A stretch of 64,000 nucleotides of DNA from positions 60,523 through 124,522 of the forward strand of contig JAJDCG010000002.1 in assembly GCA_029260965.1 (NCBI GenBank), written 5' to 3'. The notes under the pieces were generated by a model, which was not told the origin of the DNA, did not search any database, and saw nothing but the letters and a program-made list of their open reading frames with translations. Below, one piece after another: positions 28,521-58,890 of this stretch; the stretch's first letter is position 1; the number at the start of each line of letters is the position of its first letter. This DNA is from Candidatus Levyibacteriota bacterium (GTDB lineage: Bacteria; Patescibacteriota; Microgenomatia; Levybacterales; UBA12049). Position numbers and translations under genes: made by a program.

Positions 28521-28601
28521 CTCCTCTCATTTTGACTACTTATTTCATACTAGTTTATAAAATATAAATATGTCAAATAGGATAGGAAAATATTGCTATA
28601 A

Positions 28602-35642: not shown

Positions 35643-35725
35643 TACCGAGGGAGGGACTCGAACCCTCAAGGCCTTGCGACCAATAGTTTTTGAGACTATC
35701 GCGTATACCATTCCGCCACCCCGGT
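35643..35725 (-). tRNA. tRNA-Leu (anticodon CAA)
   Basis: Folded by hand. Acceptor stem ACCGGGG/CCTCGGT, anticodon stem ATAGT/ACTAT with loop CTCAAAA (U33, CAA, A37), a long variable arm, and T-arm GAGGG-TTCGAGT-CCCTC. Confidence 0.85.
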
Positions 35726-41711: not shown

Positions 41712-42467
41712 ATGTCAGGTCACTCCAAGTGGGCAACGATTAAAAGACAGAAAGGAGCCAACGATCAAAAAAGAGGTCAGCTTTTTACTAAATTGTCAAA
41801 AGCAATCACTATTGCTGTTAAACAGGGTGGGAGTATCACGGATCCTGAGAGCAATTTTAAGTTGAGACTTGCAGTTGATGCAGCTCGCGCTGCAAACATG
41901 CCCAAAGAAAACATAGAAAGAGCAATTTCACGCGCTGCTGGGCGAGATGCAGGAGACATAGAAGAGGTCGTGTATGAAGGTTTTGGTCCAGGAGGTTTTA
42001 GTGTAGTAGTAGAGGGTTTGACTGACAATAGGAATCGTACAAATTCTGAAGTAAAGATTGTATTCGACAAGAATGGTGGTAGGCTTGGCGGGCAGGGGAG
42101 TGTAATGTATCAATTTGAGCAAAAAGGGATGATTGTTGTTGATATTGGAACAAAATCATTTGAAGATGTTTTTCAAACAGCACTTGATGCCAACGCTGAT
42201 GATGTAGAGGACGCTGGAGGGGGGGAAGCACTTATTTATACAAAACCACAAGCCTTCTCAGAAGTTCGTGACATTGTTGAATCTGTAGGCCTTCAGATAA
42301 AAGAAGCATTGCTTAGTTTTAAGCCAATTGTTTTATCTCCGATAGAAAATGTAGACGATGCAAAAAAAGCTCTTTCTTTTGTTGAAAAACTTGAAGAGAT
42401 GGATGATGTTAATAGAGTTTTTGTAAATTTTGATATACCAGATAGTTTGATGGAGTCATTACAATGA
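41712..42467 (+). CDS. YebC/PmpR-family transcriptional regulator
   Basis: 'MSGHSKWATIKRQKGANDQKRGQLFTKLSKAITIAVKQGG' is highly diagnostic of the family. Confidence 0.9.
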   Translation: MSGHSKWATIKRQKGANDQKRGQLFTKLSKAITIAVKQGGSITDPESNFKLRLAVDAARAANMPKENIERAISRAAGRDAGDIEEVVYEGFGPGGFSVVVEGLTDNRNRTNSEVKIVFDKNGGRLGGQGSVMYQFEQKGMIVVDIGTKSFEDVFQTALDANADDVEDAGGGEALIYTKPQAFSEVRDIVESVGLQIKEALLSFKPIVLSPIENVDDAKKALSFVEKLEEMDDVNRVFVNFDIPDSLMESLQ

Positions 42468-43357
42468 GAAAGTTTGAAAATTCTGACATAGGATCTTTGC
42501 GTGTAGATTTGGGGCAAAGCAGGAGAGTTGAAAAGAAAAAGTGGCATAAGCGCATTTTTAATTTTAAGAAAGGTAAGGGAGTAACATTCTCTCTTGATAA
42601 GAGGAAAAGATTTATAATAGGTACCTTAGTTTTAACTTTTTTTCTTTTTTTTACGGAAAGTCTGTTTGGTGAATCGGGAATTTTTATTTCACTTCCACTT
42701 TCGTTTATAACAGTCTTAATTCTGTGGTGGGCTTCACACAAGGACATAAAAGACGGGAAGACGTATGAAGTTTTTATTCTACCATTTTTCTTCAGTTTGT
42801 CTTTTGGTTTATTTTACTTTCTTACGCCTGCAGCGATATTTCCTAGATTACTTTTGACACTTATTTACGCATTTGGGCTTTATTCAGTTTTTCTCAGTCA
42901 AAATATACTGGTTATTTCCTCAGCGAAAACTATAAATTTATTATCTGGTGCTAGAATTGTTTCATTTGTAACAACACTAGTTTCATATTTTTTTCTTACC
43001 AATTCTGCTTTTGCACTGCATGAGATTCTTTTTGTATTAATTCCTGTAGTTGGAATATATACATTTTTTCTAATCTATCATTCCTTATGGACGTACAATC
43101 TTCAGAAGCTATCATCCTTTAAGCTTTGGTCTGCAGGGTTGACTCTTTGTCTTTTAGAGGCAGCGGTAATGCTTTGGTTCTGGCCTTCGAGTCCGACTGT
43201 AATATCACTTTTTATGACTGGGTTTTTTTATTCAATTGTTGGTCTTTCACATATTTGGTTCGAGAGGAGGCTTTTCAAAGGTGTTCTGTGGGAGTATGTA
43301 TGGGTGGGCTGTATAGTTTTTTTCGTTCTCATTTTGTTTACTCCATGGGGGAATTAA
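42464..43357 (+). CDS. Multi-pass membrane protein of unknown function
   Basis: Basic N-terminus then ~8 TM helices. ATGA overlap with the YebC-family gene. Confidence 0.5.
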   Translation: MRKFENSDIGSLRVDLGQSRRVEKKKWHKRIFNFKKGKGVTFSLDKRKRFIIGTLVLTFFLFFTESLFGESGIFISLPLSFITVLILWWASHKDIKDGKTYEVFILPFFFSLSFGLFYFLTPAAIFPRLLLTLIYAFGLYSVFLSQNILVISSAKTINLLSGARIVSFVTTLVSYFFLTNSAFALHEILFVLIPVVGIYTFFLIYHSLWTYNLQKLSSFKLWSAGLTLCLLEAAVMLWFWPSSPTVISLFMTGFFYSIVGLSHIWFERRLFKGVLWEYVWVGCIVFFVLILFTPWGN

Positions 43358-44450
43358 GTTAGTTTGTTGACTTGAGTATTTAAATAAATACTGACTTTAA
43401 ACACTCAAAAATTAACTAATGCTATATTTGAATTTTCTAAATTTAATATTTGAAATTTTTACCAGTTATGATGAAAGGAGAGAAGGGGAGTGATATTATA
43501 AGATATAATAGACCCATAATAAAATGATATAGTTTGATATATATGTGGATAACTTTTCACAAAGAGGGTTTTCACAAGGCTAAATGATATAGTTTGTTAG
43601 TGAAGATTTTTCAGTAGAAATCTTTACCTATAGATACTTACAAGTATAGTTTTTTTGGGGGTGTGTGCGTAGCGTTTCTGAAGATCTGCTTTTGATGTTT
43701 TTATCACTCTATTCCCTCTAGGAAAGAGACAGAAGTTAGTTATAGACCCAGCAAGTATAAGATAGGCAAAGGCGAAAAAAATACGAAAGTGAATTATTAT
43801 TTTCTTAGCCTCATTTTTGTATATTTAGCTTGATTTATCAACCTAAATATACATATATATAGAATGTTTAAAATTACTAATTTTGAGGCTAGAAAAATGC
43901 ATTTAGCCTAATTTAACAGTCTAAACTCGACCGAGTTATGACTACATAGGAGAGAAGGGGTTGTGTGAGCTCTTGTCTATTATTTATGCTTTTAAGCTAG
44001 TTAAGCAACTTAGATGTTTTAAATATGAATTTTTATTTTTTACTTACTCTATTCTGCAAAGGGAGTTACTAGATTATCCGATTGATATCGGATCTAGAAC
44101 TATATTTGGATAAATCAGGAAATCTGTTAAAAAAGTCCTGAAGAGGCATGGAGAAGGAAATGACATCATGTCGCACAATAATACTTTTACGACATGAATT
44201 AGCCTCAGTCCAGGGGGAAGGGCTGTTTCTACTTGTGCATTTTTGTTTTTATTTACTACATATTATTTATTTTAAAATCATTAATTTCCTTATTTATCCC
44301 CTTAAAAATACCTGTCAATGCCAGGCAGATTTAGACCCTCACCTATTTACTATGGGGCTTAAAATCGTGCCTAGATCGTATTTTTTAGCTTCAAAATGTC
44401 CCCTTTTAGCTTTAGAGAAGTGTGTAAAATTTATTTTGAGAAAATTCTCT

Positions 44451-45866
44451 TTAGTGTAGGATGGAGAGATCAAAGGGTGGTTCAGGAGATTTGGGTTCGC
44501 GATAGATAGGATGCCCTGAGTTTATAGCATCAAGGATTTGTACATATCTATAAAAAACAGCATTGGTCCAGCCAAATCCTTTTTGATCGCCATAAAGAGC
44601 GCCTCGTCCTGATTCGCCAGTTTCACCATCGATTTTTTCAAAAAATGTATCGTATTTCATGTAAAGTTTATGATGGGCCTTTAGCGAGTTTTTCATTATT
44701 CTTGTTGCATCATCGATAAAACCGTACCTGAGAAGACCTATGATAGTTAGATATTCAAGAGGAGACCATATATTAGGGTAGTCCCATTGTTTGGGGTTAA
44801 CGATATCTTTTATGGCTGGGTGATAGCGTTTTTGAATTTTTGTTATATCAATAGGTTTTGCTAGCGACTCCTTGGCTGTAATTGTTAGTCCATATGGAGT
44901 CTCGAATTTGGGTAGCATCTTTACCATTCGTTTTGCCTGATCGATTGTGGGAATTCCAGCCCACATCGGTACGAAAGACGCAAGAGACAAAAAGTTGCTC
45001 AATCTCTCGTATTTATACCCGTAGTCGTAGAAAAAGCCGTTATTTTCATCCCACATATAAGTGTTAATTTCCTTTTTTCGGTGAAGTGCCTTTTCGGTCC
45101 ATTTTTTTTCTTCGTTTTCGTCTCTCAAAATCCGTGCTGCATCGGCGAAGTCAAGTTCATACTTATAGAGGTAGGAGTTGAGGTCAATAGGTAGAAATTG
45201 ATCACACCTATTATAAAAGCGTGAGGTAAAGTCCCATCCTGATTCAAGTTCGGATGAATATCCATACCCTATATCGCGGTCGCCATAGCGAGCTAATATA
45301 TATCCTTTGACGTGGTGGTTGTATAGGTTGTCCACGTCTATCCAAACCTGTTGGTATTCTTTTTTAGCAATGTTGATAGCCTTTCTGAACCAGACAATAT
45401 TACCAATTTTATATATTCCATTCCTTAGCCCTATGTGATATTTGTGTTTTTTGTGCGTTCTAAGCGGTGTCAGGTATGCATCCATAATCATTGATGAAAA
45501 AAATGGCGGTTGAGAGTGATTGATTGAGGCAGGAGCGCTAAAATTTGGAATAATGTGAAACTTGTGAAAAAGATAGATAAAGTTATTGACCATATCTTTC
45601 ATAATGGTTTGCCGTTTGGTTCCCATCAGGCCCCGGAACATAAAATAGGTATCCCAGTAATAAATGCGTTTGAAATGTTCGGTATTTGGCACGATAAATG
45701 AGTGCGGTATATAAAATGAGCTTGAGGTAGATCTGGTATCTGGAAAAAGCATCGGTATTGTGATGTTTTTATATTTTAGCTTCATTGTTGAAGGTTTAAA
45801 TATAATTTTTTTCCAATACCCATCTATGTAATTTAGGCTTTCTTTGTATTTTTCTTTGTAAGTCAT
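44451..45866 (-). CDS. Trehalase (glycoside hydrolase family 37)
   Basis: 'FIVPNTEHFKRIYYWDTYF' matches GH37 signature 1 (PGGRF.E.YYWDSY). 'QWDYPNIWSPL' matches signature 2 (QWD.PN.W.PL). Confidence 0.8.
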   Translation of the reverse strand: MTYKEKYKESLNYIDGYWKKIIFKPSTMKLKYKNITIPMLFPDTRSTSSSFYIPHSFIVPNTEHFKRIYYWDTYFMFRGLMGTKRQTIMKDMVNNFIYLFHKFHIIPNFSAPASINHSQPPFFSSMIMDAYLTPLRTHKKHKYHIGLRNGIYKIGNIVWFRKAINIAKKEYQQVWIDVDNLYNHHVKGYILARYGDRDIGYGYSSELESGWDFTSRFYNRCDQFLPIDLNSYLYKYELDFADAARILRDENEEKKWTEKALHRKKEINTYMWDENNGFFYDYGYKYERLSNFLSLASFVPMWAGIPTIDQAKRMVKMLPKFETPYGLTITAKESLAKPIDITKIQKRYHPAIKDIVNPKQWDYPNIWSPLEYLTIIGLLRYGFIDDATRIMKNSLKAHHKLYMKYDTFFEKIDGETGESGRGALYGDQKGFGWTNAVFYRYVQILDAINSGHPIYREPKSPEPPFDLSILH

Positions 45867-45931
45867 ATTATGATACTGCTTATATGTTATCAGAGATGGT
45901 GTTGATTTTAAATATGCTTTGTAAGCGTGAT

Positions 45932-45960
45932 TTGCAAATGAAATTTTTATGTCGTAGAAT
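45932..45960 (+). promoter_or_regulatory. Sigma70-like promoter TTGCAA-N17-TAGAAT for the recombinase gene
   Basis: 'TTGCAAatgaaatttttatgtcgTAGAATatttatATG'. The -10 element ends 6 nt before the start codon, suggesting a leaderless transcript. Confidence 0.5.
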
Positions 45961-45966
45961 ATTTAT

Positions 45967-46902
45967 ATGAAAGATTTAAGTTTGGTAGATCAAATCCAAC
46001 AGTTTTTAGAATACTTAGAAATTGAAAAAAATTGTTCCAAGTTGACTATCCGTGATTATCGTCATTATCTAGATGTGTTTTTAGATTGGCACTCCTCTAC
46101 TCTGCCTGGAAAGTCGATAAAAGATTTGGATCTTTCACTTATTCGTAAATATAGAGTTTTTTTAGCAAATCATGTTGATAATAAGGGAAGAAGTAGGAAA
46201 AGAGTTACACAGAATTATTATGTCATTGCGCTTCGGTCCTTTCTCCGTTTTTTAATAAAGAATGATGTCCCGACTCTGGAGCCTTCAAAAATTGACTTAC
46301 CCAAGACAGAAAGTCGTAGTCTTAAATTCTTGGAGCGGGATCAGGTAGAGATGTTGGTTAAGATGCCTGATGTTTCGATAGAAAAAGGTATAAGGGATCG
46401 AGCAATTTTAGAACTTCTCTTCTCGACAGGTCTTCGTGTTTCAGAGCTTGTTAGTCTCGATCATGCGCGTGTGAATTTAGAGCGACGCGAGTTTGGTGTG
46501 ATCGGAAAGGGACAAAAATCCAGAATTGTTTTTGTCTCAGATAGAGCTGCTGAGTGGATAGGAAAATATCTTCAGAAGCGCAAGGATAATTTTCGTCCTC
46601 TTTTTATCCGTTATTCAAGAGGAGTTCAGGAGGATGACAATGGTGCTAGGATGCGATTGACGGCCCGATCAGTTGAGCGAATTGTTAAAAAATATACTCG
46701 TCTGGCTCGTTTACCAGTTGATGCGACAGTTCATACGCTTCGCCATTCATTCGCAACAGATCTATTGATGAATGGGGCGGATCTCAGATCTGTTCAGGAG
46801 ATGCTGGGGCATAAAAATATCGCGACAACACAGATATATACACATATTACTAACAAACAGCTTAGAGATGTCCACAAAGCGTTTCATAGTGGGAACAAAT
46901 AA
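45967..46902 (+). CDS. Tyrosine site-specific recombinase, XerC/XerD family
   Basis: N-terminal SAM-like core-binding domain. Catalytic 'HTLRHSFATDLLMNGADLRSVQEMLGHKNIATTQIYTHI' with the R..HxxR..Y signature. Confidence 0.85.
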   Translation: MKDLSLVDQIQQFLEYLEIEKNCSKLTIRDYRHYLDVFLDWHSSTLPGKSIKDLDLSLIRKYRVFLANHVDNKGRSRKRVTQNYYVIALRSFLRFLIKNDVPTLEPSKIDLPKTESRSLKFLERDQVEMLVKMPDVSIEKGIRDRAILELLFSTGLRVSELVSLDHARVNLERREFGVIGKGQKSRIVFVSDRAAEWIGKYLQKRKDNFRPLFIRYSRGVQEDDNGARMRLTARSVERIVKKYTRLARLPVDATVHTLRHSFATDLLMNGADLRSVQEMLGHKNIATTQIYTHITNKQLRDVHKAFHSGNK

Positions 46903-46936
46903 AGTAACAAAGGCGAAAAGTAAATTAAGTATAAAT

Positions 46937-47683
46937 TTAGTATGTTTCAAATGAGAGGGTTGCTGTGATGGATACTTTGTTTTCTCCTGGTTCGAGTTCT
47001 GTTTCTGTTTTTTCAACAGCATCTAGTTCGATGTTTCTAGCAAGAGGAATGGGCCCTCCAACGTTACTGGATAGTTGAACATCAATTATTCGCCCGATTT
47101 TTATTCCTGTTGTTTTAGCAATCTCCTCTGCCTTCTGCTTGGCGATGTCTATTGCATCTTTTGTTGCTTTTTGCTCCAGCTCTTTTTGTTTTTCTTCATT
47201 CAGAACAAATTGTACATTACTAATTTGATTAGCACCGTTTTGCACAGCAGTATCTATTGCTTGATTTATTTTCTCGACAGAGTCAGATTCAACATTTATA
47301 TTTATACTAACAATATATCCCAATGGTGTCTCTTTTCCATTTTCAAAACCATAATCAGGGCGTATGGAGTAGTCGCTTGTTTTTATGTTTTTTTCTTCAA
47401 TTCCAAGGGATTTGAGCTCTGTTGTTATCCGATTGATTTTTGTATTCGTTTCTTTTTGTGCAGCCTCTACTGACGGTGCTGTAGTACTTACACCAATTGT
47501 TGTCATAGCAGTATCTGGGACTGCAGTTGCCTCGCTAGTACCACTTGTTGTAAAAAGAGAATTTTTGTTGGTAACAACACTCTGAACAGAAAAAGGAATC
47601 GGTCCAAAGATTTTTGTAAATATAAATAGAGAAAGTAATGCGAAAATTATTGTGAGGAATGGGACTTTAAGATCTTTCCACAT
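46937..47683 (-). CDS. SIMPL-domain (DUF541) periplasmic protein
   Basis: N-terminal TM/signal. '...YSIRPDYGFENGKETPLGYIVSININVES...ENKVSITATLSFE' fits the SIMPL/26-kDa periplasmic immunogenic protein family. Confidence 0.75.
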   Translation of the reverse strand: MWKDLKVPFLTIIFALLSLFIFTKIFGPIPFSVQSVVTNKNSLFTTSGTSEATAVPDTAMTTIGVSTTAPSVEAAQKETNTKINRITTELKSLGIEEKNIKTSDYSIRPDYGFENGKETPLGYIVSININVESDSVEKINQAIDTAVQNGANQISNVQFVLNEEKQKELEQKATKDAIDIAKQKAEEIAKTTGIKIGRIIDVQLSSNVGGPIPLARNIELDAVEKTETELEPGENKVSITATLSFETY

Positions 47684-47774
47684 AATATATATATTAATGC
47701 TTTGTTTATTAGTTTGTCAACTATTTTAGTATTATTTCTTGCGGGCTTTGCCGAGCTTTGAAAACTTTCTGATA

Positions 47775-48863
47775 TTACTCCCATTTGAAAGTTTTGGTCG
47801 CAATTAGATACATGATGATACCCCATGCAGCAAGGCCTAGTAGATATGGCATTGTTTCCGTTAGGTTGCCTCCCTCAGTGGTTATTATTCTGACTGCTGC
47901 ATTAAAATATGAAAGTGGCAGGTTACCGGCCACTGGTTGTATCCAGCTTGGCAGATCCTCAATCGGAAAAAATGTTCCAGAGAGAAGGAATTGTGGGAGG
48001 GTGATTATATTTACAAGAGGTGCGGCTGTATTGTCGTCTTTTGAAAGTCCAGCGATGAGATAACCAAATCCAAGAAATGCAATAAGGCCTATCGTGGATA
48101 TGATCATTAGATCAAAAAAGGTTGTCAATCCGTGCGGTAGATGAAAATTAAAAACAAAAACACCGATTGTTAAGATAAGCAGGGTTTGAATGAGCGCGAT
48201 GATAAGTCTTGATGTTCCTTGGCCTATCAAGATAGTAAGTGCCTTTGTGGGGGTTGCAAACATTCTTTTTAATATCAATGAGCGTTTTAAATATATCAGT
48301 CCAAATACAGTTCCGAAAATAGAGGTTGAAAGAAGGGAAAATCCGATTTGCCCTGGCAAGGCAAAATCTATATAACGGAAATCTCTTCCTGTGATTTCTC
48401 TTTGGTAAAGTGTAAGATATGGGTTTTCGATTCCTGCAATTCTTAGGTTTGTTTTAGCAATAACACCCTCCATGACTGATGCAAGGGCTTGTGCCTCGAC
48501 TGGATTTGCAGTAGATGAGAGAATTGTTACCTTATGGTCCCCTATCTCTATTATTCCTGATAGTTTTCCTTCTTTGAGCTGCTGCTTAAGTGTTTTTGCA
48601 TTGCCTGTTTGTAGTTCCATGTATTTCTGTTGTTCGAGAACCGTTAGGACTTGGTTGGGTTCTGTGGTTTCTGAGATGCCGACTGTAAGAGTCCGTTCTT
48701 GATCACCGATCAGTCCGAATACACTTATAAATACAATAGGAAAAATAAATCCAAACGCAAAGCTTGCAGGGTTTCTGGTTTGTGCAAGGAACGCATACCA
48801 TGTCATGGCAAAGTATGCTTTCCATTGTCTTGGTTTTTTTGATTTAGTATTTAGTTTAAGCAT
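47775..48863 (-). CDS. ABC-2-type transporter permease
   Basis: N-terminal TM, a large extracytoplasmic loop, then 5 more TM helices. Adjacent to an ABC ATPase. Confidence 0.7.
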   Translation of the reverse strand: MLKLNTKSKKPRQWKAYFAMTWYAFLAQTRNPASFAFGFIFPIVFISVFGLIGDQERTLTVGISETTEPNQVLTVLEQQKYMELQTGNAKTLKQQLKEGKLSGIIEIGDHKVTILSSTANPVEAQALASVMEGVIAKTNLRIAGIENPYLTLYQREITGRDFRYIDFALPGQIGFSLLSTSIFGTVFGLIYLKRSLILKRMFATPTKALTILIGQGTSRLIIALIQTLLILTIGVFVFNFHLPHGLTTFFDLMIISTIGLIAFLGFGYLIAGLSKDDNTAAPLVNIITLPQFLLSGTFFPIEDLPSWIQPVAGNLPLSYFNAAVRIITTEGGNLTETMPYLLGLAAWGIIMYLIATKTFKWE

Positions 48864-48882
48864 ATTTATTTTTATAAACTAT

Positions 48883-49701
48883 CTATTCCTCGCGTAGTTT
48901 CCTGCCTGTTAGATCGAGAAATACGTCTTCAAGACTGGCTTTCTGTTTGGATATTTCTCTTTTAAAGCCTTTCTTTAGGAGGTCGCTGATTAGCTTTTTC
49001 GGAGTCCCTATTTTTATTATTTCTCCATTATCCATTATTGCGATGCGGTTACAGAGCTTTTCTGCTTCTTCCATGTTGTGTGTTGTCAGGACAATGGTTA
49101 CTCCTGTTTTTTTAATTTCATTTATCATCTCCCAGAGATTTATTCGCGCGTGGGGGTCAAGTCCTGTTGTTGGCTCATCAAGAAAAATTATTTTTGGTTT
49201 GTTAACAAGTGTTGCTGCAATTGAGAAGCGTTGTTTTTGCCCACCTGATAATTCGTTTGCAAAACTGCCTGCCTTATCCTCGAGATGTACTTTTTTGAGC
49301 ATCTTAATAGGATCAACAGACACATCATACATGGACGCAAACATTTTGAGAAGTTCTGTCAGTTTTAGCTCGGGATAAAAATTTGATGATTGAAGTTGTA
49401 TTCCTATTTGGGATTTTACTTCCCATGGATTTTTTTTAACATCTATTCCATTGACTAGTATCTTGCCACTCGTTAATTCCTGAAGAGTTTCTATTATTTC
49501 AAGAGTTGTAGTTTTGCCTGCTCCATTTGGTCCGAGTATCCCAAAAACCTCACCTCTTCTTACAGAAAAAGATATTCTGTCTACTGCAGTAAAATCTCTA
49601 AATTTTTTGACTAGTTTTTTAACAATTATGATTTCGTTTTTTTTTGATTTTGTAGGAGTTGCTTTTTTGCTCGTCTTTAAAGTCTTTTTATGTTCTGCCA
49701 T
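48883..49701 (-). CDS. ABC transporter ATP-binding protein
   Basis: Walker A 'GILGPNGAGKTTTL', signature 'LSGGQKQRFSIA', Walker B 'IIFLDEPTTGLD'. Confidence 0.85.
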   Translation of the reverse strand: MAEHKKTLKTSKKATPTKSKKNEIIIVKKLVKKFRDFTAVDRISFSVRRGEVFGILGPNGAGKTTTLEIIETLQELTSGKILVNGIDVKKNPWEVKSQIGIQLQSSNFYPELKLTELLKMFASMYDVSVDPIKMLKKVHLEDKAGSFANELSGGQKQRFSIAATLVNKPKIIFLDEPTTGLDPHARINLWEMINEIKKTGVTIVLTTHNMEEAEKLCNRIAIMDNGEIIKIGTPKKLISDLLKKGFKREISKQKASLEDVFLDLTGRKLREE

Positions 49702-49745
49702 TAGTTTGCTATTGTAGCATGAAAATAGCCTTCATGAAAGGGGTA

Positions 49746-50384
49746 TTACTTGTCCTGACGGGCTTTTTCTTCCAAGAATTTTTTTCCGTGGCCCACTGTA
49801 GTATTGATTGGTTTGTTTTTTTTGCAAAGCGGGCATTCGTCTGCTGTGTATGATGGGATCTCAAGCGTGGCAAGAGACGAAAAAGGAGCTCCTACAGCTT
49901 CATTTGTAACTATCTTGGGGTCACGATTTACCATTACACAAACTCCAGCTACTTCCCCTCCCACTTGCTTAACACTTTTTACTACTTTCGCAACTGATCC
50001 TCCTGTTGTAGTGAGATCCTCAACTACCAAAACCTTTTTATTTTTAATCAACTGATCATATCCCCTGGTAAAGATCTGATTTTTTTCAGCATTTTTTTCG
50101 GTGTAGATTCCAAGAATATCAATACTCTTCATTTTAGATAGGTGATAGGCTACCCATGTCGATAGAATAATGCCGCCAAGTGCCGGGCCTATAACTACAT
50201 CAATATCTTCGTTCTTGTATTTAGTAGCAAACAGTTCTCCTATTCTTGATGTTTCGCCTGTGTGAGGATATAGTGCGTCTTTATTTATGTATGTTGCAAA
50301 ATGACGACCAGAAGTGCCAACGAAATGGTCATCAGCAAGGATTGCTTTTGTTTTTTTTAGTATGTCGATAACCTCATTGTCCAT
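49746..50384 (-). CDS. pyrE: Orotate phosphoribosyltransferase
   Basis: Type I PRTase PRPP loop 'VLVVEDLTTTGGS'. 'F.GTSGRHFATYINKD' is an OPRTase-like N-terminus. Adjacent to pyrF. Confidence 0.7.
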   Translation of the reverse strand: MDNEVIDILKKTKAILADDHFVGTSGRHFATYINKDALYPHTGETSRIGELFATKYKNEDIDVVIGPALGGIILSTWVAYHLSKMKSIDILGIYTEKNAEKNQIFTRGYDQLIKNKKVLVVEDLTTTGGSVAKVVKSVKQVGGEVAGVCVMVNRDPKIVTNEAVGAPFSSLATLEIPSYTADECPLCKKNKPINTTVGHGKKFLEEKARQDK

Positions 50385-50392
50385 AAATTTTA

Positions 50393-51214
50393 TTATACAC
50401 GATACTTATTGATTTCGTCTCGAAGTTTTCTTGCTTCTTTTTTTGCGACATCAGCAAAATCATCTCCACTTGATGCGAAAATAATTCCGCGAGATGAATT
50501 GATGATCATCCCCTTTTTGGCTTTATTGAGACCTGCTTTGATTGTTGCCTCGACATCTCCTCCCTGTGCACCAACTCCTGGAACAAGAAATGTCATATCT
50601 CCTGAAATTTCTCTAACCTCAGCTAATTCTTCAGGATATGTAGCCCCAACAACCATTAGACAGTTATTATTTTTGTTCCATTCATTTACTATCTTTCTAG
50701 CAATTAATTTATAAAGTTTTTCTCCATTTACGATTAAGTTTTGTATCTCACCTGCACCGGGATTAGATGTCTTACAAAGGACAATTATCCCTTTATCTTT
50801 TAATTCTAAAAAGGGTTGGATTGTCTCATGACCAAGATATGGATGGAGAGTTACAGCATCTATTCTCAGATATCCAAAAACAAACTTTATGTATTCATTA
50901 TTGGTATTTCCGATGTCTGCTCTTTTAGCATCCAAAATTATTGGGATATCAGGATAGTTTTTGTTGATATAGCTACAAGTCATTTTTAGATCTCTTATTC
51001 CTTGTTCTCCTCGTGCTTCATAAAAAGCAGAGTTTGGCTTGAATGCACATACCAGGTCAGCTGTTGCTTCAATTATTTTTTTATTAAATTCAAATTGAGG
51101 ATTTTTTACATTCCTAATACTTTCTGGAAGTTTTTCAAAATCAGGATCCAGCCCCACGCAAAGAAGTGAGTTGTTTTTTTCAATCGCATGATCTAGTTTT
51201 TGGTTAAAGTTCAT
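50393..51214 (-). CDS. pyrF: Orotidine-5'-phosphate decarboxylase (long/type 2 form)
   Basis: 'LLCVGLDPDFEKLP' and 'ILDAKRADIGNT' are OMPdecase motifs. Confidence 0.85.
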   Translation of the reverse strand: MNFNQKLDHAIEKNNSLLCVGLDPDFEKLPESIRNVKNPQFEFNKKIIEATADLVCAFKPNSAFYEARGEQGIRDLKMTCSYINKNYPDIPIILDAKRADIGNTNNEYIKFVFGYLRIDAVTLHPYLGHETIQPFLELKDKGIIVLCKTSNPGAGEIQNLIVNGEKLYKLIARKIVNEWNKNNNCLMVVGATYPEELAEVREISGDMTFLVPGVGAQGGDVEATIKAGLNKAKKGMIINSSRGIIFASSGDDFADVAKKEARKLRDEINKYRV

Positions 51215-51347
51215 TTTCGTGTTTTTTTATATCTTGTGCCAGATACGGATTCCACATCGCACCAGTTATTTCAATAAGTTTATTGTTAACAATTGGTTTT
51301 GCAAGTTCTATCACATCTGATCCAAAAATTCCGATTTTATATTTCAT
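51204..51347 (-). CDS. Small ORF (47 aa) translationally coupled between pyrD and pyrF
   Basis: Its ATG overlaps the pyrD stop (ATGA) and its stop overlaps the pyrF start region. Product 'MKYKIGIFGSDVIELAKPIVNNKLIEITGAMWNPYLAQDIKKHENEL'. No known family. Confidence 0.25.
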   Translation of the reverse strand: MKYKIGIFGSDVIELAKPIVNNKLIEITGAMWNPYLAQDIKKHENEL

Positions 51348-52444
51348 TTTGCATTGATTCCTACAAGTTCACTAATATTATTAAGTCCTTCTTTTTCCAT
51401 ATATTTTAGAAGTCCTTCATTTATTTTTCCTGGCAATGTTGGGCCTTCTTCATCAAATGCAGTGTAGATTTGAAGAGCTGTTGCTCCAGCCTTTATTTTT
51501 TCTAATGCTGTGCTGGTATCTTTTATTCCTCCCGAACCAATAATAATTAATTCTCTTCCTGCTTTTTTGTAGATATGTTTGATTATTTCTGTTGACATTT
51601 TTCTATAATCATTGTCATCTCCGCTTACTCCTCCCATTTCATCTCTCCAACGCTCTCCGTATTTTGCTTTTATATCACTATTAAGTGTTGTGTTTGTTGC
51701 AACAATTCCAGTCAGTTTATTTTCTAGAACAACCTCAATAACATCATTTACTGCCTCAAAAGTGAGATCGGGTGCAATTTTAACAAATAAAGGTTTCGCT
51801 TTCCCCTTGTTACTCATTACCTTAGTAACTGATTTTACAATTTTTGTTAAAGGTTCTTTTTCTTGAAGTTTTCTGAGTCCGACTGTGTTCGGTGAAGAAA
51901 CATTAATAGTAAAATAATCACCAAGATTATATAAGTGTTCCAAAACGTCAGCATGAGCATCAGCTGCTTTCTCGTCCGGTACGTCTTTATTTTTCCCAAT
52001 GTTAATTCCTATTGGAGCTGCTATTTTTTGATATGACTCAATTACTTTAGAAAATTCCTCCATTCCAGAATTTGTAAATCCATAACGATTAAGTCTGACA
52101 CCTTTTTTAAGAATAAAATCTCGTGGTTGAGAATTTCCGTATTGGAAATATTTTGTTATAGTTCCTACCTCCACGGCTGCGAATCCCAGGTCATAACATG
52201 CCTTAAGTCCGTGTCCAACTTTATCCCAACCGGCGCCGACTATCAACGGATTGTCAAGTCTCAGACCGCCCATGTTGATATGTAATTTTTTATCAGTTAC
52301 TCTTTTGTTTCTGTAAGCGATTTTCCTTATAATCTTTTCATACTCGGGAGATTGCTCTAGAAGAAATAGGAGTTCACGGATTGCTAGGTGTTCTGTTTCA
52401 GCATCTAATTTATCAATGATAGGAAGTATAAATTTATCGTACAT
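51344..52444 (-). CDS. pyrD: Dihydroorotate dehydrogenase, class 2 (quinone-dependent)
   Basis: 'INIGKNKDVPDEKAADAHADVLE...TINVSSPNTVGLRKLQ' and 'RYGFTNSGMEE' align with class 2 PyrD. An N-terminal extension is present. Confidence 0.85.
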   Translation of the reverse strand: MYDKFILPIIDKLDAETEHLAIRELLFLLEQSPEYEKIIRKIAYRNKRVTDKKLHINMGGLRLDNPLIVGAGWDKVGHGLKACYDLGFAAVEVGTITKYFQYGNSQPRDFILKKGVRLNRYGFTNSGMEEFSKVIESYQKIAAPIGINIGKNKDVPDEKAADAHADVLEHLYNLGDYFTINVSSPNTVGLRKLQEKEPLTKIVKSVTKVMSNKGKAKPLFVKIAPDLTFEAVNDVIEVVLENKLTGIVATNTTLNSDIKAKYGERWRDEMGGVSGDDNDYRKMSTEIIKHIYKKAGRELIIIGSGGIKDTSTALEKIKAGATALQIYTAFDEEGPTLPGKINEGLLKYMEKEGLNNISELVGINAK

Positions 52445-52446
52445 AG

Positions 52447-53490
52447 TTATATTATTTTTCCAAAACCAGGACGTACGAGTATTTTATCATTTTCAAAAAC
52501 TTTTGTCCCTCGGATGAATACGCGTTTAACTCGTCCTTTCATTTTCCAACCATCAAATGGTGACCATTTACATTTTGTTTTTAGATTTTTGTTTTTAAGT
52601 ATCCACTCCTCGCTCTCATCAATTTCAATATAAGTTTTTTTATCGGTTTTAATATTAAATATTTTAGCAGGGCCATCGTGACAAAGACGTTTGATGTCTT
52701 TTAGCGCTAGTCGTTTTTTTGACATGGCTGTTAGAAGAAGATGGAGGGTTGTTTCAAGTCCAGGTATACCAAAAGGTTGAGGATGAGATTTTTTTTCTTT
52801 CAAAGTGTGAGGTGCGTGATCTGATTCAACTATATCAACATACATTAGGTTTTTCCAAATAAACTCTTGATCTTTTCTTGTCTTGAGCGCTGGTTTCATT
52901 TTGGCAAAGGCTCCTAATTTTTTTTCATCAGACTTTTCTAAAAATAAATGGTGAGGAGTTACTCCACAGGTGACCATCCATCTTTTCTTTTTTGCTCGTT
53001 TGATAATACTTAACTCTTTTTGGGAGCTGACATGGGCAACGTGAATTTTTTGTTTATATTTATTTCCGATTTTCAAAATTACATCGAGGATGTTTTCTTC
53101 AGCGTGAACTATTATCACTTTTCCTTTGGGCCATTTCTTACAGATGCTTTCAAATACTTTTTCATCAACTATGAATCCACCTGTTGTAATATTGAGATAA
53201 ATTTTTAGAGCTTTTGCTTTTGAACTTACTTTTTTAAATTCATCTAAATTATCACCTAGTGATCCGAAATGAAATCCTATGTCGCAAACTGTTTGTTTTT
53301 TGGCAATTTTTATTTTTTCATCCAAAAGTTTTTCTGTGGTAATCGGAGTTGAATTGTTTGGCATGTCAATGACAGTAGTAAAGCCACCTGCTAGAGCAGC
53401 TTTTGTTCCTGTTGAAAAATTCTCTTTATATGATTGTCCTGGTGTCCTCATGTGAACATGGGGATCAATTAGGCCTGGTAATATAATCAT
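52447..53490 (-). CDS. pyrC: Dihydroorotase
   Basis: 'IILPGLIDPHVHMRTPG' is the amidohydrolase HxH metal motif. Carbamylated-Lys region 'ALKIY' is present. Confidence 0.85.
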   Translation of the reverse strand: MIILPGLIDPHVHMRTPGQSYKENFSTGTKAALAGGFTTVIDMPNNSTPITTEKLLDEKIKIAKKQTVCDIGFHFGSLGDNLDEFKKVSSKAKALKIYLNITTGGFIVDEKVFESICKKWPKGKVIIVHAEENILDVILKIGNKYKQKIHVAHVSSQKELSIIKRAKKKRWMVTCGVTPHHLFLEKSDEKKLGAFAKMKPALKTRKDQEFIWKNLMYVDIVESDHAPHTLKEKKSHPQPFGIPGLETTLHLLLTAMSKKRLALKDIKRLCHDGPAKIFNIKTDKKTYIEIDESEEWILKNKNLKTKCKWSPFDGWKMKGRVKRVFIRGTKVFENDKILVRPGFGKII

Positions 53491-56400
53491 ATATACTCAC
53501 TCCATGATTTTATCATAAGATCATCAAATTTTTTATCAGTAATGGAATTGATAAACAGTTCAGCTTTTTTAATTTTTGTCAAAATTAAAATATTATTATC
53601 AGATGCCATTCGTCTGATCGCATGATCGTCATTTATTTCTTTTTTGATATTTTTATCAACAATGTTTATCACTAAATCAACTTTTTTATTGCGAAAATTG
53701 TCTAAGATATTTGGAGATTTTTTTTCATGTATTTTGTAAAGACTTTTTACTTTCAGTCCGTTTTGGTTTAAAAATTTGGCGGTTTTTTCAGTTGCAAAAA
53801 GTGTTACTCCAAAATTTTTTAATTTTAAAACGCTTCTTAGAAGGTCTTGTTTCTTTTTGTCTCCACCAAGACTTATAAATATTCCTTTTTTGGGGATCTT
53901 TCCTCCTGTTGCGATTATACCCTTGAGGAATGCTTCTTCTCTATCTGCTCCAAAACATGCAACCTCACCTGTGGATGCCATTTCTACTCCCAGCATTGGT
54001 TGAGCACCGGCCAAACGAGTGAATGAAAATTGTGCAACCTTAATTGCTGTTGATTTCAGTTTTGGTGTTTTGATATATTTTATATTCTTTTTATAAAGAG
54101 AGTTGACAAAGAGTTCGATTAAATTAATTCCAGTAACTTTTGCAATAAATGGAAATGTTCTTGACGCCCTGAGATTAATTTCAATTATAAAAACTTCATT
54201 GTCTTTTGCCAGAAATTGGATGTTAAATGGTCCTGTTATGTTCAGTTCTTTTGCAAGCTTTTCTGAGATTTTATGCATTTCGTTTTTTGTTTTCGTGTTC
54301 ACTCTGTCAGCTGGAAGAACTATGGACGCATCACCAGAATGGACTCCCGCATATTCGATGTGCTCTGAGATGACGGATGCTTTTATTGATCCATTTTGGG
54401 CTATACCATCTAGTTCTATTTCTTTTGCTTGTTCAAAGAATTTTGATACTGTTACTGGATATTTTTTTGAAACGCTTGCTGCTTCCTTGAGATAGGTCTT
54501 GAGATCTTTTTTGTCAAAGCAAATATTCATTGCACTACCTGAGAGAACAAAAGAAGGACGGATCAGGACAGGATATCCCACTTTTTCAGCAAATTTTTCA
54601 GCATTTTCCAGATCAGAAAATGCATTCCAGGCAGGTTGTTTTATTTTCAACTTGTCAAGTAGGGAGGAGAATTTATTTCTATCCTCTGCACGATCTATGT
54701 CAACAGGATTTGTTCCTAGAATTTTTGCTCCGTACTTGTGTAGTGCTTTTGCTCTATTGTTTGGTGTCTGTCCACCCACTGAAACAATTACACCGTCTGG
54801 ATTTTCATATTCATAAATATCTGCTATTTTTTCAAATGTTAGTTCCTCAAAATATAATTTGTCTGATATATCATAATCAGTTGATACTGTCTCGGGATTA
54901 CAATTGATTATTATTGATTGCTTTTTATGTTTTTTTAAATTCATTACGGTATTTACAGAACACCAGTCAAATTCTACAGACGATCCGATGTGATAAGGAC
55001 CAGACCCGAGAACGATAACTGAGTTTTTTCTCGATGGTTTTATATCAGAGTGGTTAGCATTGTATGTCATGTAGAGATAGTTTGTTATGGCGGGGAATTC
55101 TGACGCAAGAGTATCTATCTGAAGCACAGATGGGATTATTTTAAATGCTTTTCTGATCTTTCTTATCTCAAGTCCTTTTTTACCGATTATGTTTCCAATT
55201 CTTTTGTCAGAAAAACCAAGTTGTTTTAATTCCAGTAATTTATTTCGGTCAAGTATTTTATTTTTTGAAAGTTCGTCTTCATGATTGGTTATATTTTTAA
55301 TTCTATGCAAGAACCAAGGATCGACCCCTGAAAGTTTGTGGACTTCTTTAACAGAGAACCCTTTTTTTAGGGCCGATGCGATGTCAAACATTCTTTGGGG
55401 AGTTGGATTCTTAACTCCTTCTAATATTTCAGATGTTTTTTTATTTTCATTTTCCGATACGGCACCTTCGTAATTCATGTCAAGCATTCTTATTGCTTTT
55501 TGATATGACTCTTCAAATGTTCTGCCAATACCCATCACTTCACCTACGGATTTCATGCTGCTTCCAAGTTTCTTATCTGCACCTTTGAATTTTTCCATAT
55601 CCCATCTGGGAATTTTGGTGACAACATAATCTAGTGCTGGTTCAAAGCAGGCTGATGTTGCACCAGTCACTTTATTTTTAATTTCAGTTAAGCCGTACCC
55701 TATTCCTAATTTTGCTGCTATGTATGCAAGCGGATAGCCTGTTGCCTTACTGGCAAGAGCAGAGCTTCGGGAGAGTCTGGCGTTGACTTCGATCACAAAA
55801 TAGTCTAGCAATTGCTCATTTTGCCAGCGTTCAAACCGTGATCGTTGCGGACGGGGGTTTAGGGCAAATTGCACATTGCACTCACCTACTATCCCGAGAC
55901 TTCTAACGATCTCAATAGATGCGCGTCTGAGTTCATGATACTCCTGGTTGTTGAGGGTTTGCGAAGGAGCAACAACTATTGATTCACCAGTGTGAATCCC
56001 AAGTGGGTCCATATTTTCCATATTACAAACAGTAATGCAATTATCGTACTTGTCTCTCACTACTTCGTATTCTATTTCTTTGAAATGGTGGAGATATTTC
56101 TCAATCAATATTTGAGGCGCAAAAGCAAGTGCGTGCTGAGCAGTCTTTATTAGATTTTTTTCATCGTAAACTACTCCACTTCCTTGTCCTCCGAGTGCGA
56201 ATCCAGCACGAACCATCACTGGATAGCCGATTTTTTTTGCTATTTTTATGGCGTTATCTATGGATCTTGCAGCACGGGATTCGGGAGTGGGAATATTTAT
56301 TTTATGTAGATGATTTGCAAATTTATTTCTATCTTCAGTAAGCATTATTGCAGAAATAGGAGTGCCAAGAATTTGGACATTGTATTTTTTAAGTATACCT

Positions 56401-56714
56401 GTTTTTTGAAGTGCAATCCCGCAGTTTAAAGCAGTTTGTCCTCCGAATGAGAGGAGTATACCGTCGGGTTTTTCTTTTTCAATTATTTTTTCGACAAATT
56501 CTGGGGTGACAGGAAGAAAATATACTTCATCTGCAAGTTCTTTTGAAGTCTGTATAGTTGCGATATTTGGATTAACCAAAATTGTCCTGATGCCTTCTTC
56601 TTTGAGTGCTTTTATTGCCTGGGATCCAGAGTAATCAAACTCTCCTGCCTCGCCAATTTTTAGGGCACCTGATCCCAGTATTAACACATGTTTTATTCGT
56701 TTATTTTTTTTCAT
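53487..56714 (-). CDS. carB: Carbamoyl-phosphate synthase large subunit
   Basis: 1075 aa with duplicated ATP-grasp halves (two 'ILGT..' / 'GVHSGDS' blocks), an oligomerisation domain and an MGS-like C-terminus. Confidence 0.95.
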   Translation of the reverse strand: MKKNKRIKHVLILGSGALKIGEAGEFDYSGSQAIKALKEEGIRTILVNPNIATIQTSKELADEVYFLPVTPEFVEKIIEKEKPDGILLSFGGQTALNCGIALQKTGILKKYNVQILGTPISAIMLTEDRNKFANHLHKINIPTPESRAARSIDNAIKIAKKIGYPVMVRAGFALGGQGSGVVYDEKNLIKTAQHALAFAPQILIEKYLHHFKEIEYEVVRDKYDNCITVCNMENMDPLGIHTGESIVVAPSQTLNNQEYHELRRASIEIVRSLGIVGECNVQFALNPRPQRSRFERWQNEQLLDYFVIEVNARLSRSSALASKATGYPLAYIAAKLGIGYGLTEIKNKVTGATSACFEPALDYVVTKIPRWDMEKFKGADKKLGSSMKSVGEVMGIGRTFEESYQKAIRMLDMNYEGAVSENENKKTSEILEGVKNPTPQRMFDIASALKKGFSVKEVHKLSGVDPWFLHRIKNITNHEDELSKNKILDRNKLLELKQLGFSDKRIGNIIGKKGLEIRKIRKAFKIIPSVLQIDTLASEFPAITNYLYMTYNANHSDIKPSRKNSVIVLGSGPYHIGSSVEFDWCSVNTVMNLKKHKKQSIIINCNPETVSTDYDISDKLYFEELTFEKIADIYEYENPDGVIVSVGGQTPNNRAKALHKYGAKILGTNPVDIDRAEDRNKFSSLLDKLKIKQPAWNAFSDLENAEKFAEKVGYPVLIRPSFVLSGSAMNICFDKKDLKTYLKEAASVSKKYPVTVSKFFEQAKEIELDGIAQNGSIKASVISEHIEYAGVHSGDASIVLPADRVNTKTKNEMHKISEKLAKELNITGPFNIQFLAKDNEVFIIEINLRASRTFPFIAKVTGINLIELFVNSLYKKNIKYIKTPKLKSTAIKVAQFSFTRLAGAQPMLGVEMASTGEVACFGADREEAFLKGIIATGGKIPKKGIFISLGGDKKKQDLLRSVLKLKNFGVTLFATEKTAKFLNQNGLKVKSLYKIHEKKSPNILDNFRNKKVDLVINIVDKNIKKEINDDHAIRRMASDNNILILTKIKKAELFINSITDKKFDDLMIKSWSEYI

Positions 56715-57747
56715 AATTTTTAATTTTTTTTAGGAAGTAGTCAAAAATCCACTCTGTGTCTTTTGGTCCAGGTGTCGCTTCTGGATGGAACTGTACTGAC
56801 ATGAATGGATATTTTTTGTGAATTATTCCTTCGATGCTGCCATCGTTGCCGTTTGTGAACCATCTATTAAATCCTGGTGGCACCTTGCCTACTGCAAAGC
56901 CATGATTCTGAGTTGTGATATAGCATTTTTTTGAATCTTGTAGAATACAGGGTTGATTTTGACTACGGTGACCGTATTTTAGTTTGTATGTATCTCCACC
57001 TGCAGCAAGAGCAAGTAATTGATTGCCGAGACAAATTCCAAGCGTAGGTAATTTTCTATCCAGTGCCTTTTTGATAATCGATATAGTTTTTTTTGCTTTT
57101 TTGGGATCTCCAGGACCGTTTGAAATAAATAATGCATCAAATTTGAGATTTTTTTCAAAAGGATCATAATCCCAGGGTACAGTAATTGTTTTCACTCCTC
57201 TTTTTAGAAAACATCTCCTGATATTATTTTTGGCACCGCAATCGATGATAACAATAGTTTTGTCTCCCTTTCCATGTTCGAGAATCTTTTTAGTTGAAAC
57301 ACTCTCGACTATGTTTATTTTGTTCGGATCAAAAAAGTCTATGTTTTTTTTGAAGTTAATTTTGCCGAGCATAACTCCTTTTTCTCTGAGATGTTTTGTT
57401 AAAAATCTCGTATCTTTTATAATGAGTGCTGGTATCTTTTCTTGCTTGAGCCATTGCGATAATGTTTTTTTTGATTGATGATGAGAAGGCCTGTCTATGT
57501 AGTCAGAGACAATAAGACCTGAGACCTGTATGCGGTCAGATTCCCAGTATTTTTTGTCTGGTACGCCGTAGTTTCCGATTAATGGATATGTAAGAATGAG
57601 GATTTGTCCTGCAAATGAGGGGTCAGTGAGTGTCTCTGTGTAGCCAGTCATGCCAGTTGCGAAGACGGTTTCGCCTGATGTTTCCGTTATTGCGCCAAAA
57701 GGCTTGCCATCTATTTCTGTTCCGTCTTCAAGTATCAGTTTGCCCAT
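56701..57747 (-). CDS. carA: Carbamoyl-phosphate synthase small subunit (glutamine amidotransferase)
   Basis: CPSase_sm_chain N-domain and class I GATase with 'GICLGNQLLA' (Cys nucleophile) and 'VQFHPE'. Confidence 0.9.
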   Translation of the reverse strand: MGKLILEDGTEIDGKPFGAITETSGETVFATGMTGYTETLTDPSFAGQILILTYPLIGNYGVPDKKYWESDRIQVSGLIVSDYIDRPSHHQSKKTLSQWLKQEKIPALIIKDTRFLTKHLREKGVMLGKINFKKNIDFFDPNKINIVESVSTKKILEHGKGDKTIVIIDCGAKNNIRRCFLKRGVKTITVPWDYDPFEKNLKFDALFISNGPGDPKKAKKTISIIKKALDRKLPTLGICLGNQLLALAAGGDTYKLKYGHRSQNQPCILQDSKKCYITTQNHGFAVGKVPPGFNRWFTNGNDGSIEGIIHKKYPFMSVQFHPEATPGPKDTEWIFDYFLKKIKNYEKK

Positions 57748-57765
57748 ATTTATGAATTATGAATA

Positions 57766-57807
57766 AAGAATTATGAATTATGGATTATTTTTTAATTCAT
57801 AATTCTT
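57766..57807 (-). promoter_or_regulatory. Perfect 15-bp inverted repeat in the pyrB-carA intergenic spacer (candidate operator/attenuator)
   Basis: 'AAGAATTATGAATTA-n12-TAATTCATAATTCTT'. Flanked by direct repeats of ATGAATTATG. Confidence 0.4.
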
Positions 57808-57822
57808 AGCTCCTAATTCAAT

Positions 57823-58800: not shown

Positions 58801-58806
58801 AAAAAA

Positions 58807-58845
58807 TCAGAACCCTTTTAGCCTTACAGGCAGGTATGGTTCTGA
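58807..58845 (-). terminator. Terminator/attenuator-like hairpin + T6 immediately upstream of the pyrB start codon
   Basis: On the mRNA: UCAGAACC-(23-nt loop)-GGUUCUGA-UUUUUU-AUG(pyrB). The only SD-like AAAGGG sits inside the 3' stem. Confidence 0.5.
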
Positions 58846-58890
58846 AATAATAATTTACCAGAATAAGTATGTTTAGTCAATGAGGGAAAA

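Follow-up and report, generated by a model that had tools for sequence, protein, structure and literature searches.

What is the function of a stretch of non-coding DNA that lies between two convergent genes in a Levybacteria-like genome of the candidate phyla radiation? The stretch in question, positions 43358-44450 of the 64-kb window analysed here (the window being the whole stretch of 64,000 nucleotides, from a genome with a GC content of ~36%), separates the gene of a DUF5656 membrane protein (42464-43357, + strand) from that of a GH37 trehalase (44451-45866, - strand), beyond which stands xer, the gene of a XerC/D-like recombinase. As stated in an initial annotation of the window, this gap holds no open reading frame (ORF) of 60 aa or more, save 44148-44459 and the tail of an ORF overlapping the DUF5656 gene; the former, already suspected of being spurious, encodes 103 aa without a Pfam match and is not conserved. 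A structured non-coding RNA (ncRNA), the remnant of a decayed gene or element, and a site related to replication or partition had been put forward as explanations. We find in the gap a nearly invariant 28-bp inverted repeat, termed X, accompanied by a strictly polar cluster of conserved motifs. We propose, with a probability of about 50%, that the gap is the conserved multi-part cis-acting DNA of an Xer/dif-like module with a single recombinase, whose accessory or regulatory region lies on one side; in this reading the region includes DnaA boxes, and the xer promoter bears an autoregulatory half-site. The argument is carried by the architecture, conservation, polarity, gene linkage and uniqueness of the element and by the lack of RNA-type covariation in it, all of which are observed directly.

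The comparison covers at least ~165 loci carrying X, comprising ~45 genome loci and at least 120 metagenome loci. The first 80 relatives were fetched via the trehalase gene, with the gap used as a blastn query, and a scan of metagenome contigs with the X core gave the at least 120 further stretches. Whole-gap alignment with MAFFT was unusable on account of insertions and deletions, and motif maps were used instead; k-mer and motif maps cover 41 genome-derived gaps, the conservation of X was measured over 163 distinct sequences, and motif polarity was counted in the 118 related loci with at least 700 nt on either side of X. Blocks of the gap are collinear and 75-100% identical in ~45 Levybacteria whose trehalases are only 47-65% identical (blastn, 80 loci), the nearest relatives of the trehalase, at no more than 65% identity, being found in metagenome-assembled genomes of Levybacteria or Patescibacteria. 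Individual blocks of 15-30 nt remain 80-100% identical where the flanking proteins share just 30-65%, which refutes the idea of a decayed gene or element remnant.

The perfect DnaA box and the hairpin, both singled out in the initial annotation, are the best-conserved parts of the gap. The hairpin is real, although its coordinates had been 1-2 nt off, and its arms are TCATGTCG (44166-44173) and CGACATGA (44190-44197). Its 28-mer, X, follows the consensus AYGTCGYACAA-N6-TTTTRCGACRT and is nearly invariant, with variation confined mostly to the spacer (TAATAC, TATAAC, TATTAC) and to arm positions 2 and 7. The arms, AYGTCGYACAA on the left and AYGTCGYAAAA on the right (reverse complement), are identical at 10/11 positions in an 11-6-11 layout, the spacer measures 6 bp in 163/163 sequences, and X differs from its own reverse complement by 2 mismatches. 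X is unique in the window (0 matches expected by chance); each retrieved stretch among the matches listed, including contigs of 0.5-1.19 Mb, carries one X, and no match was found in viral contigs. The site is non-coding, and this conservation holds across at least ~165 loci whose flanking proteins are 30-65% identical.

A separate observation concerns assembly ends. Contigs tend to stop just outside the 28-mer, on either side (seven loci, among them L001, which ends at the equivalent of window position 44197, and L044, which does likewise), and 5/82 whole contigs end within 30 nt of X, compared with 1.6 expected. Our guess is that a 28-32-mer identical among co-occurring species breaks short-k-mer assemblies; it is also possible that such ends represent real alternative junctions at a recombination site.

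X is linked to xer. In all loci holding both (at least 120 metagenome and ~45 genome loci), X lies upstream of xer, on its strand and with the DUF5656 gene on the other side, and is often found 380-1100 nt from xer without an intervening gene. The xer product scores 247 bits against the NCBIfam model for XerD, 243 against XerC and 216 against XerA, each below its cut-off (220 for XerA), and its best match among solved structures is XerD (1a0p, 3.7e-40). The stretches GLRVSEL, HxLRH and LGH...Y align with XerD (1a0p) and are read, from this alignment, as the putative catalytic R/H-R/H-Y residues. In nearly every locus the xer promoter carries a further copy of one X arm as a half-site, X', and TGTCGNANAAT is restricted to X and X' in most 21-kb loci. 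The register of X' varies: it lies on the -10 in Levybacteria and elsewhere abuts the -35 as GTCGCACAAT-R-TTGACA-N17-TAAACT. A motif that stays on the promoter yet shifts its register fits a protein-binding site or operator rather than a promoter hexamer.

The 5' end of xer itself deserves mention. In the window (45955-45969) and in seven related loci the start codon follows just 6-7 nt past the -10 hexamer, which probably makes the xer mRNA leaderless. Other lineages have, in the 5' region of xer, ACTCCCCT, complementary to a Shine-Dalgarno sequence, at the position expected of a ribosome-binding site.

Upstream of X lies the cluster of conserved motifs, whose coordinates, with those of the other features, are collected in Table 1. 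Most short repeats are indistinguishable from chance inside the single window sequence, and are taken as real because they are conserved in the 118 related loci. The repeats listed in the initial annotation are present, at coordinates that differ by 1-2 nt and with TATAGACCCA not exact in both places, while the perfect DnaA box TGTGGATAA was confirmed as the sole perfect one in 64 kb. The labels used below are P for (G)TCCTATAA, A for AAATGATATAGTTTGATA, F1/F2 for TTTTCAC[AG] boxes and K for GAAAAAAATACGAAAG. Read directly from the sequence, TTTTCAC(A/G) departs from the DnaA-box consensus TTWTNCACA at position 1 only.

Table 1. Features of the gap and of the xer gene (window coordinates)
Feature	Sequence	Position	Strand	Remarks
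Site X	ATGTCGCACAA TAATAC TTTTACGACAT	44168-44195	+	28 bp; candidate Xer core (dif-like) site
xer		45967-46902	+	XerC/XerD/XerA-like tyrosine recombinase, 311 aa; Pfam Phage_integrase and SAM-like N-terminal domain
xer promoter	TTGCAA, 17-nt spacer, TAGAAT (-10)	45932-45960	+	
Half-site X'	ATGTCGTAGAAT	45949-45960	+	covers -10; ATG 6 nt downstream
Purine-rich block	GGAGAGAAGGGGAG	43477-43490	+	5' edge of conserved element; aligns with GGGGAAGAGGGGAG-type tracts in relatives
Repeat	GAGAGAAGGGG	43478 and 43950		
P motif	GACCCATAATAA	43511-43522	+	degenerate copy of (G)TCCTATAA
Repeat	AAATGATATAGTTTG	43522 and 43582	+	direct-repeat family D2
A motif, copy 1	AAATGATATAGTTTGATA	43522-43539	+	repeat family D2
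Perfect DnaA box	TTATCCACA (minus-strand reading)	43544-43552	-	only perfect box in window
DnaA-box-like F1	CTTTTCACA	43553-43561	+	abuts perfect box, opposite orientation
Repeat	TTTTCACAA	43554 and 43569		
DnaA-box-like F2	GTTTTCACA	43568-43576	+	oriented as F1
A motif, copy 2	AAATGATATAGTTTGTTA	43582-43599	+	
Repeat	TATAGACCCA	43741 and 43508-43516		exact at 43741 only; other copy 9/10 match
K motif	GAAAAAAATACGAAAG	43774-43789	+	AAAATACGAA in 35/41 genome-derived gaps
Long inverted repeat	ATTTTCTTAGCCTCA / TGAGGCTAGAAAAAT	43799-43898	.	inverted repeats I2 and I6; encloses palindrome
Repeat	TAGCCTCATTT / TAGCCTAATTT	43806 and 43905		
Palindrome	TTTAGCTTGATTTATCAACCTAAA	43824-43847		pattern with 2 matches in 64 kb, 0.06 expected
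Module	GAGGCTAGAAAAATGCA + TTTAGCCTAATTTAACAGTCTAAA	43885-43925	+	homologue of consensus TTGAGGCTAAAA-N8-TTTAGAYTGATWWATCAATCTAAA
Purine motif	GGAGAAGG	44150-44157	+	~11 nt upstream of X; RGGRGAAG in alignment
G-rich motif	GGGGGAAGGGC	44213-44223	+	T-rich tail; in terminator-like hairpin 44206-44225 (consensus scan)

The polarity of these motifs relative to X is pronounced. Upstream of X, TGATATAG occurs on the same strand in 99/118 loci and on the other strand in 1, the perfect box TGTGGATAA in 76/118 and 0, TTTTCAC[AG] in 99/118 (with at least 2 copies in 87) and 8, and the K sequence AAATACGAA in 57/118 and 0, respectively. The P motif, which is strand-symmetric and was counted in either orientation, lies upstream in 84/118 loci and downstream in 20, and in some lineages forms tandem arrays of up to 4-5 copies. 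Closer to the site, the purine motif stands on this strand no more than 45 nt upstream of X in 53/118 loci (other strand 6) and the G-rich motif within 60 nt downstream in 72/118 (other strand 4); G-rich hexamers upstream of X favour the X strand by 181 to 17. The module TTGAGGCTAAAA-N8-TTTAGAYTGATWWATCAATCTAAA is present in 1-3 copies in each locus.

The 41 genome-derived gaps keep a fixed order and orientation on the + strand: a purine-rich block is followed by a GTCCTATAA-type motif, TGATATAGT(T/A)TGATATAGT, the perfect box TGTGGATAA with CTTTTCACAG immediately next to it, a second TTTTCACAG, another AAATGATATAGTTTGAT, GAAAAAAATACGAA, the module TTGAGGCTAAAA-N8-TTTAGAYTGATWWATCAATCTAAA in 1-3 copies, a variable stretch, RGGRGAAG, the hairpin, and finally GGGGGAGGGC with a T-run. 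Across lineages the order of blocks differs, as A-D-F-F-(A)-(K)-X or (P)n-F-F-A/D-X, with orientation to X kept; such permutation is the behaviour of modular protein-binding sites, unlike one RNA fold. The cluster stands 150-650 bp (~150-700 nt) from X, on one side only and in one orientation, and is essentially never reversed. This distance and strict polarity argue for a functional link rather than chance adjacency. Conservation in relatives, which the initial annotation had suggested examining by sub-segment, is seen both in collinear upstream blocks and in the 28-mer of the hairpin.

On the other side of X, the G-rich hexamers GGGGAG and GGGAGG switch strand 100-300 nt downstream in ~160 loci (around 44293-44303 in the window, ATCCCCTT); counts on the X strand versus the other strand are 51 vs 5 just after X and 0 vs 41 in the +100 bin. 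This flip stems partly from terminator hairpins. Polar motifs of the KOPS/SRS type converging on X were also considered and set aside: GGGNAGGG and GAGAAGGG beside X are strand-biased, with small counts that are confounded with gene orientation, and the G-rich flip falls ~100-300 nt past X, not at X.

The surrounding gene order is stable: PsiU, LytR_C, TPR, YebC, DUF5656, the gap, trehalase, xer, SIMPL, ABC2. Metagenome loci read YebC, DUF5656, X, xer, on one strand throughout. The ancestral arrangement is DUF5656, followed by the element with X, followed by xer; because X and xer are adjacent without a gene between them in many lineages, the trehalase gene represents a Levybacteria-specific insertion. 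In every lineage the element and xer are immediately preceded, on the same strand, by the genes for YebC/TACO1 and the DUF5656 membrane protein (41712-43357 in the window). In many bacteria yebC adjoins ruvC. Both flanks of the element are hot spots of lineage-specific gene insertion, with inserts between DUF5656 and the element in four loci and between X and trehalase in nine; from their sequences these are read as a putative nucleotidyltransferase/HEPN-like toxin-antitoxin pair, methyltransferase-like, ClpP-like and unknown proteins of 200-340 aa. Syntenic loci of the Levybacteria type are often filed under record names such as "uncultured Gammaproteobacteria", "Limnocylindrales", "Sulfotelmatobacter" and "Saccharimonadales" (14 loci and others), names which are probably wrong. 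Elsewhere in the window, which is otherwise compact, four further gaps of 490-680 nt lack an ORF of 100 aa or more (6705-7381, 9428-9982, 28085-28601 and 4439-4927), some of which seem to hold short ORFs.

How might such a module work? We infer binding of Xer at X and X', recombination, binding of DnaA to its boxes, and a biological role in dimer resolution or another process. One monomer of the neighbouring XerC/D/A-like recombinase would bind each arm of X, the two arms being inverted around the asymmetric 6-bp spacer. Two X sites, for example those of a chromosome dimer or of sister chromosomes, would then form a synapse in which strands are exchanged across the spacer. The recombinase would most likely repress its own gene via X' on the xer promoter. 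The upstream region 43477-43930, with the DnaA boxes, the TGATATAGT and CCTATAA repeats, the K motif and the palindromic modules, would serve as the accessory or regulatory region, and may link DnaA with the reaction or with the expression of xer.

Several points weigh against this proposal. The arm sequences of X are unlike those of known dif sites, save for general A-rich and T-rich inner arms, and X and X' would be accounted for just as well by a palindromic operator that an ordinary dimeric transcription factor recognises. An Xer site as such does not account for the role of the DnaA boxes, nor is a role assigned to the K motif, to the GAGGCTAAAA and palindrome modules or to the polar G-rich and C-rich words around X. 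In addition, although genes converging on the gap first hinted at a terminus, there is no switch in GC or AT skew at third codon positions (GC3, AT3) at X within the window, which spans 44 kb on its left and 20 kb on its right, nor in GC3 in ~100 relatives. Read on the coding strand, GC3 skew to the left of the gap is +0.33 for + strand genes and -0.11 for - strand genes, and to the right -0.21 for - strand genes and +0.37 for xer (+). On either side of the gap, third codon positions of the + strand are rich in G and, by AT3 in the window, also rich in T; GC3 polarity is unchanged gene by gene in ~40 Levybacteria loci and in ~75 metagenome loci without trehalase. Equal polarity on both sides speaks against an origin and against a terminus defined by skew, neither of which the gap can therefore be, and the skew inflection proposed earlier as a test for an origin or terminus is absent. 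Of the three earlier suggestions, a replication or partition site comes nearest, though not in the form first imagined: X has the architecture and gene linkage of an Xer site, and the DnaA box belongs to a conserved triad.

The canonical dif is located at the switch in GC skew. This classical coincidence is absent at X, but a terminus may lie farther off than -44/+20 kb, with X still in its vicinity. The dif site of Legionella lies up to 79 kb from the skew inflection (PMC9765430), and in archaea dif frequently stands elsewhere than opposite the origin (PMC5357621); by analogy with these, the missing switch is not a decisive objection to an Xer site. As a further observation on strand composition, 15/15 minus-strand genes right of the gap (44451-64000) are lagging-strand genes by the sign of GC3/AT3, a run of at least 20 kb that includes carB (53487-56714) and gyrA (61156-63678).

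Among known systems, XerCD/dif of E. coli and B. subtilis shares with X the length of 28 bp, the 11-6-11 layout, the non-coding and AT-rich context and the single copy (for X, among the stretches listed). The left arm of X and what we take to be the XerC arm of the E. coli site have CGCA.AA in common. Canonical dif differs in its inner arms (ATAA/TTAT compared with ACAA/TTTT in X), whereas X is linked to a recombinase gene and, within the window, stands away from any skew inflection. A dif site beside the recombinase gene is described as a hallmark of the single-recombinase systems XerS/difSL, of streptococci and lactococci, and XerH/difH, of Helicobacter and Campylobacter (PMC1914069, PMC5357621). 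Like these, X lies upstream of one recombinase gene in adjacent non-coding DNA, and has imperfect inverted arms, a short central region and clade-wide conservation (PMC1914069, PMC5357621). Unlike XerS and XerH, the recombinase here is XerC/D/A-like, scoring 131 bits against XerS (cut-off 267) and 2.8e-11 against the XerH structure 5jjv. X also differs from difSL and difH in its 28 bp with a 6-bp spacer, its other arm sequences, its distance of 0.4-1.8 kb from the gene compared with ~50 bp, the lack of a skew switch, and the long one-sided DnaA-box cluster ahead of it. Archaeal XerA/dif, like the module here, combines a single recombinase with a 28-bp site of nearly palindromic arms; the archaeal site often does not face the origin and is sometimes beside the gene (PMC5357621), and the Xer protein of the window comes near XerA (216 bits, cut-off 220). 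The bacterial host, the unrelated arms, the half-site on the recombinase promoter and the DnaA-box cluster set X apart from it.

Plasmid sites offer a further comparison. In cer (ColE1) and psi (pSC101), an Xer core site is accompanied by a few hundred bp of one-sided accessory DNA (PMC5357621), ~180-250 bp bound by PepA with ArgR or ArcA; cer also holds an internal promoter, Pcer, for Rcd RNA (PMC5357621). In comparison, X has a strictly one-sided conserved cluster upstream of it and holds a -10-like hexamer. The X locus differs from cer and psi in being chromosomal and syntenic clade-wide, and its motifs are DnaA boxes and unknown repeats instead of ArgR, PepA or ArcA sites. Purely by analogy, an accessory protein might act at X too. 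It is improbable, though conceivable on this likeness, that X is a chromosomal resolution site of the cer/psi type, at which DnaA on the box triad would be the architectural protein setting the topological filter. Such a site could do without FtsK and without a position at the terminus, and in bacteria of the candidate phyla radiation the replication initiator would be linked directly with Xer recombination or with xer expression.

The main rival to the Xer/dif-like module is a purely regulatory region, in which X would be the operator of a dimeric factor other than a recombinase, X' a half-operator, and no recombination would occur at X; we consider it unlikely. It would account well for X' overlapping xer promoter elements in every lineage and, as part of the same reading, TGATATAGT would form extended -10 promoters and the DnaA boxes would make the transcript or transcripts towards xer DnaA-dependent. 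The sequence TGATATAGT fits TGnTATAAT (within the A motif it might be read as an extended -10, TGnTATAGT), DnaA boxes directly flank A motifs in both motif orders, YACAAT in X resembles a -10, and a terminator-like hairpin follows X. However, X as an ordinary sigma-70 promoter was rejected for want of a -35 match above background, and none of the genes linked to the element is a candidate regulator. An 11-6-11 dyad beside a tyrosine-recombinase gene is moreover the textbook layout of a recombination site, and a 28-mer staying nearly invariant across lineages with proteins only 30-55% identical is what dif sites typically show and operators seldom do. A large structured ncRNA of ~450-750 nt on the + strand, running from ~43500 to the terminator-like hairpin 44206-44232 with X as a stem-loop, appears less probable still. 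Collinear conserved blocks with variable spacers between them, and a G-rich segment with a T-run after X, would suit an RNA, and a 766-nt stretch does fold better than shuffles (z = -3.5), but this score is accounted for by the palindromic DNA modules. A scan of Rfam 15, one of the checks suggested by the initial annotation, gave at gathering score only a tRNA-Leu (35643-35725) and in the gap, at E up to 10, only noise; ARAGORN found no tmRNA. RNAalifold on 23 diverse X domains returned just a 5-bp GTCG/CGAC stem, which is the arms of X (-3.9 kcal/mol), and four candidate helices gave no sign of co-evolution in a comparison of own-versus-other duplex energies (p = 0.07-0.76). Wobble asymmetry is contradictory, T.G prevailing over C.A at the outer pair of X (45 vs 6) and C.A over T.G at the inner closing pair (61 vs 13). 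GC content in the gap is low, not above the genome average, and the order of blocks permutes (A-D-F-F vs F-F-A/D). The structured RNA first envisaged is thus unsupported. Particular RNA candidates fared no better: a likeness to a PyrR site at 44119-44230 reaches 21 bits (gathering score 54), is unconserved in relatives and has no downstream pyr gene; an X helix reaching past the 28-mer, hinted at in a few loci, is unsupported in the 163 sequences and in the own-versus-other test; and helices of the upstream pyrimidine tract or the downstream C-rich tract with the G-rich segment past X show no co-evolution.

An oriC or other replicon origin would be suggested by the three DnaA-type boxes conserved across lineages, the tandem TGATATAGT and CCTATAA repeats, reminiscent of iterons, and the AT-rich DNA of low GC content. 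This reading is largely refuted by the constant sign of GC3 skew across the gap, in the window and in relatives alike, and has very little left to commend it: the flanking genes are convergent, not divergent, no DnaA signature motif occurs in the window, no unwinding element or DnaA-trio pattern was identified beside the three boxes, and DnaA boxes with one mismatch are about as frequent in the window as chance would give (23 vs 19.9 expected). Alternatively, 43522-43599 might act on its own in DnaA regulation, as a locus of the DARS, datA or box-cluster type that titrates or recycles DnaA beside the Xer site, which seems doubtful to us. To our knowledge, no DARS-type locus is known outside Proteobacteria. 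The triad resembles the E. coli DARS core, in which boxes I and II of three are likewise opposed, with one of them perfect (PMC6868365): here the perfect box directly opposes an imperfect one. In DARS, however, the two opposed boxes are separated by a 5-bp gap and the third is co-oriented with the perfect box (PMC6868365), whereas the triad has a 0-bp gap, a third box co-oriented with the imperfect one, and an arrangement that varies by lineage, being F-F-(A)-D in others; the cluster is also always ~150-700 nt from X and strictly polar. We do not claim DARS membership for the triad, and take the DARS and cer/psi likenesses as possible leads. Two remaining candidates were rejected. An integron-like arrangement (Xer as IntI, X as attC, trehalase as cassette) disagrees with an IntI score far under cut-off, a single fixed "cassette" and stable synteny, and a small ORF behind the Shine-Dalgarno-like GGGGGAGG is not conserved.

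Chromosome maintenance in bacteria of the candidate phyla radiation is almost unstudied; we came across no dif/Xer system described in these bacteria, and the 28-mer is absent from the searchable literature. If the Xer/dif-like reading is true, it would define a recombination site and its module for a large uncultured clade, and would add a fourth kind of single-recombinase Xer module, with three odd traits: a location off the skew switch, a half-site on the recombinase's own promoter, and a one-sided conserved DnaA-box triad. On the same reading, the invariant 28-mer would provide a precise and testable 28-bp substrate, and would also serve in practice as a marker of this clade.

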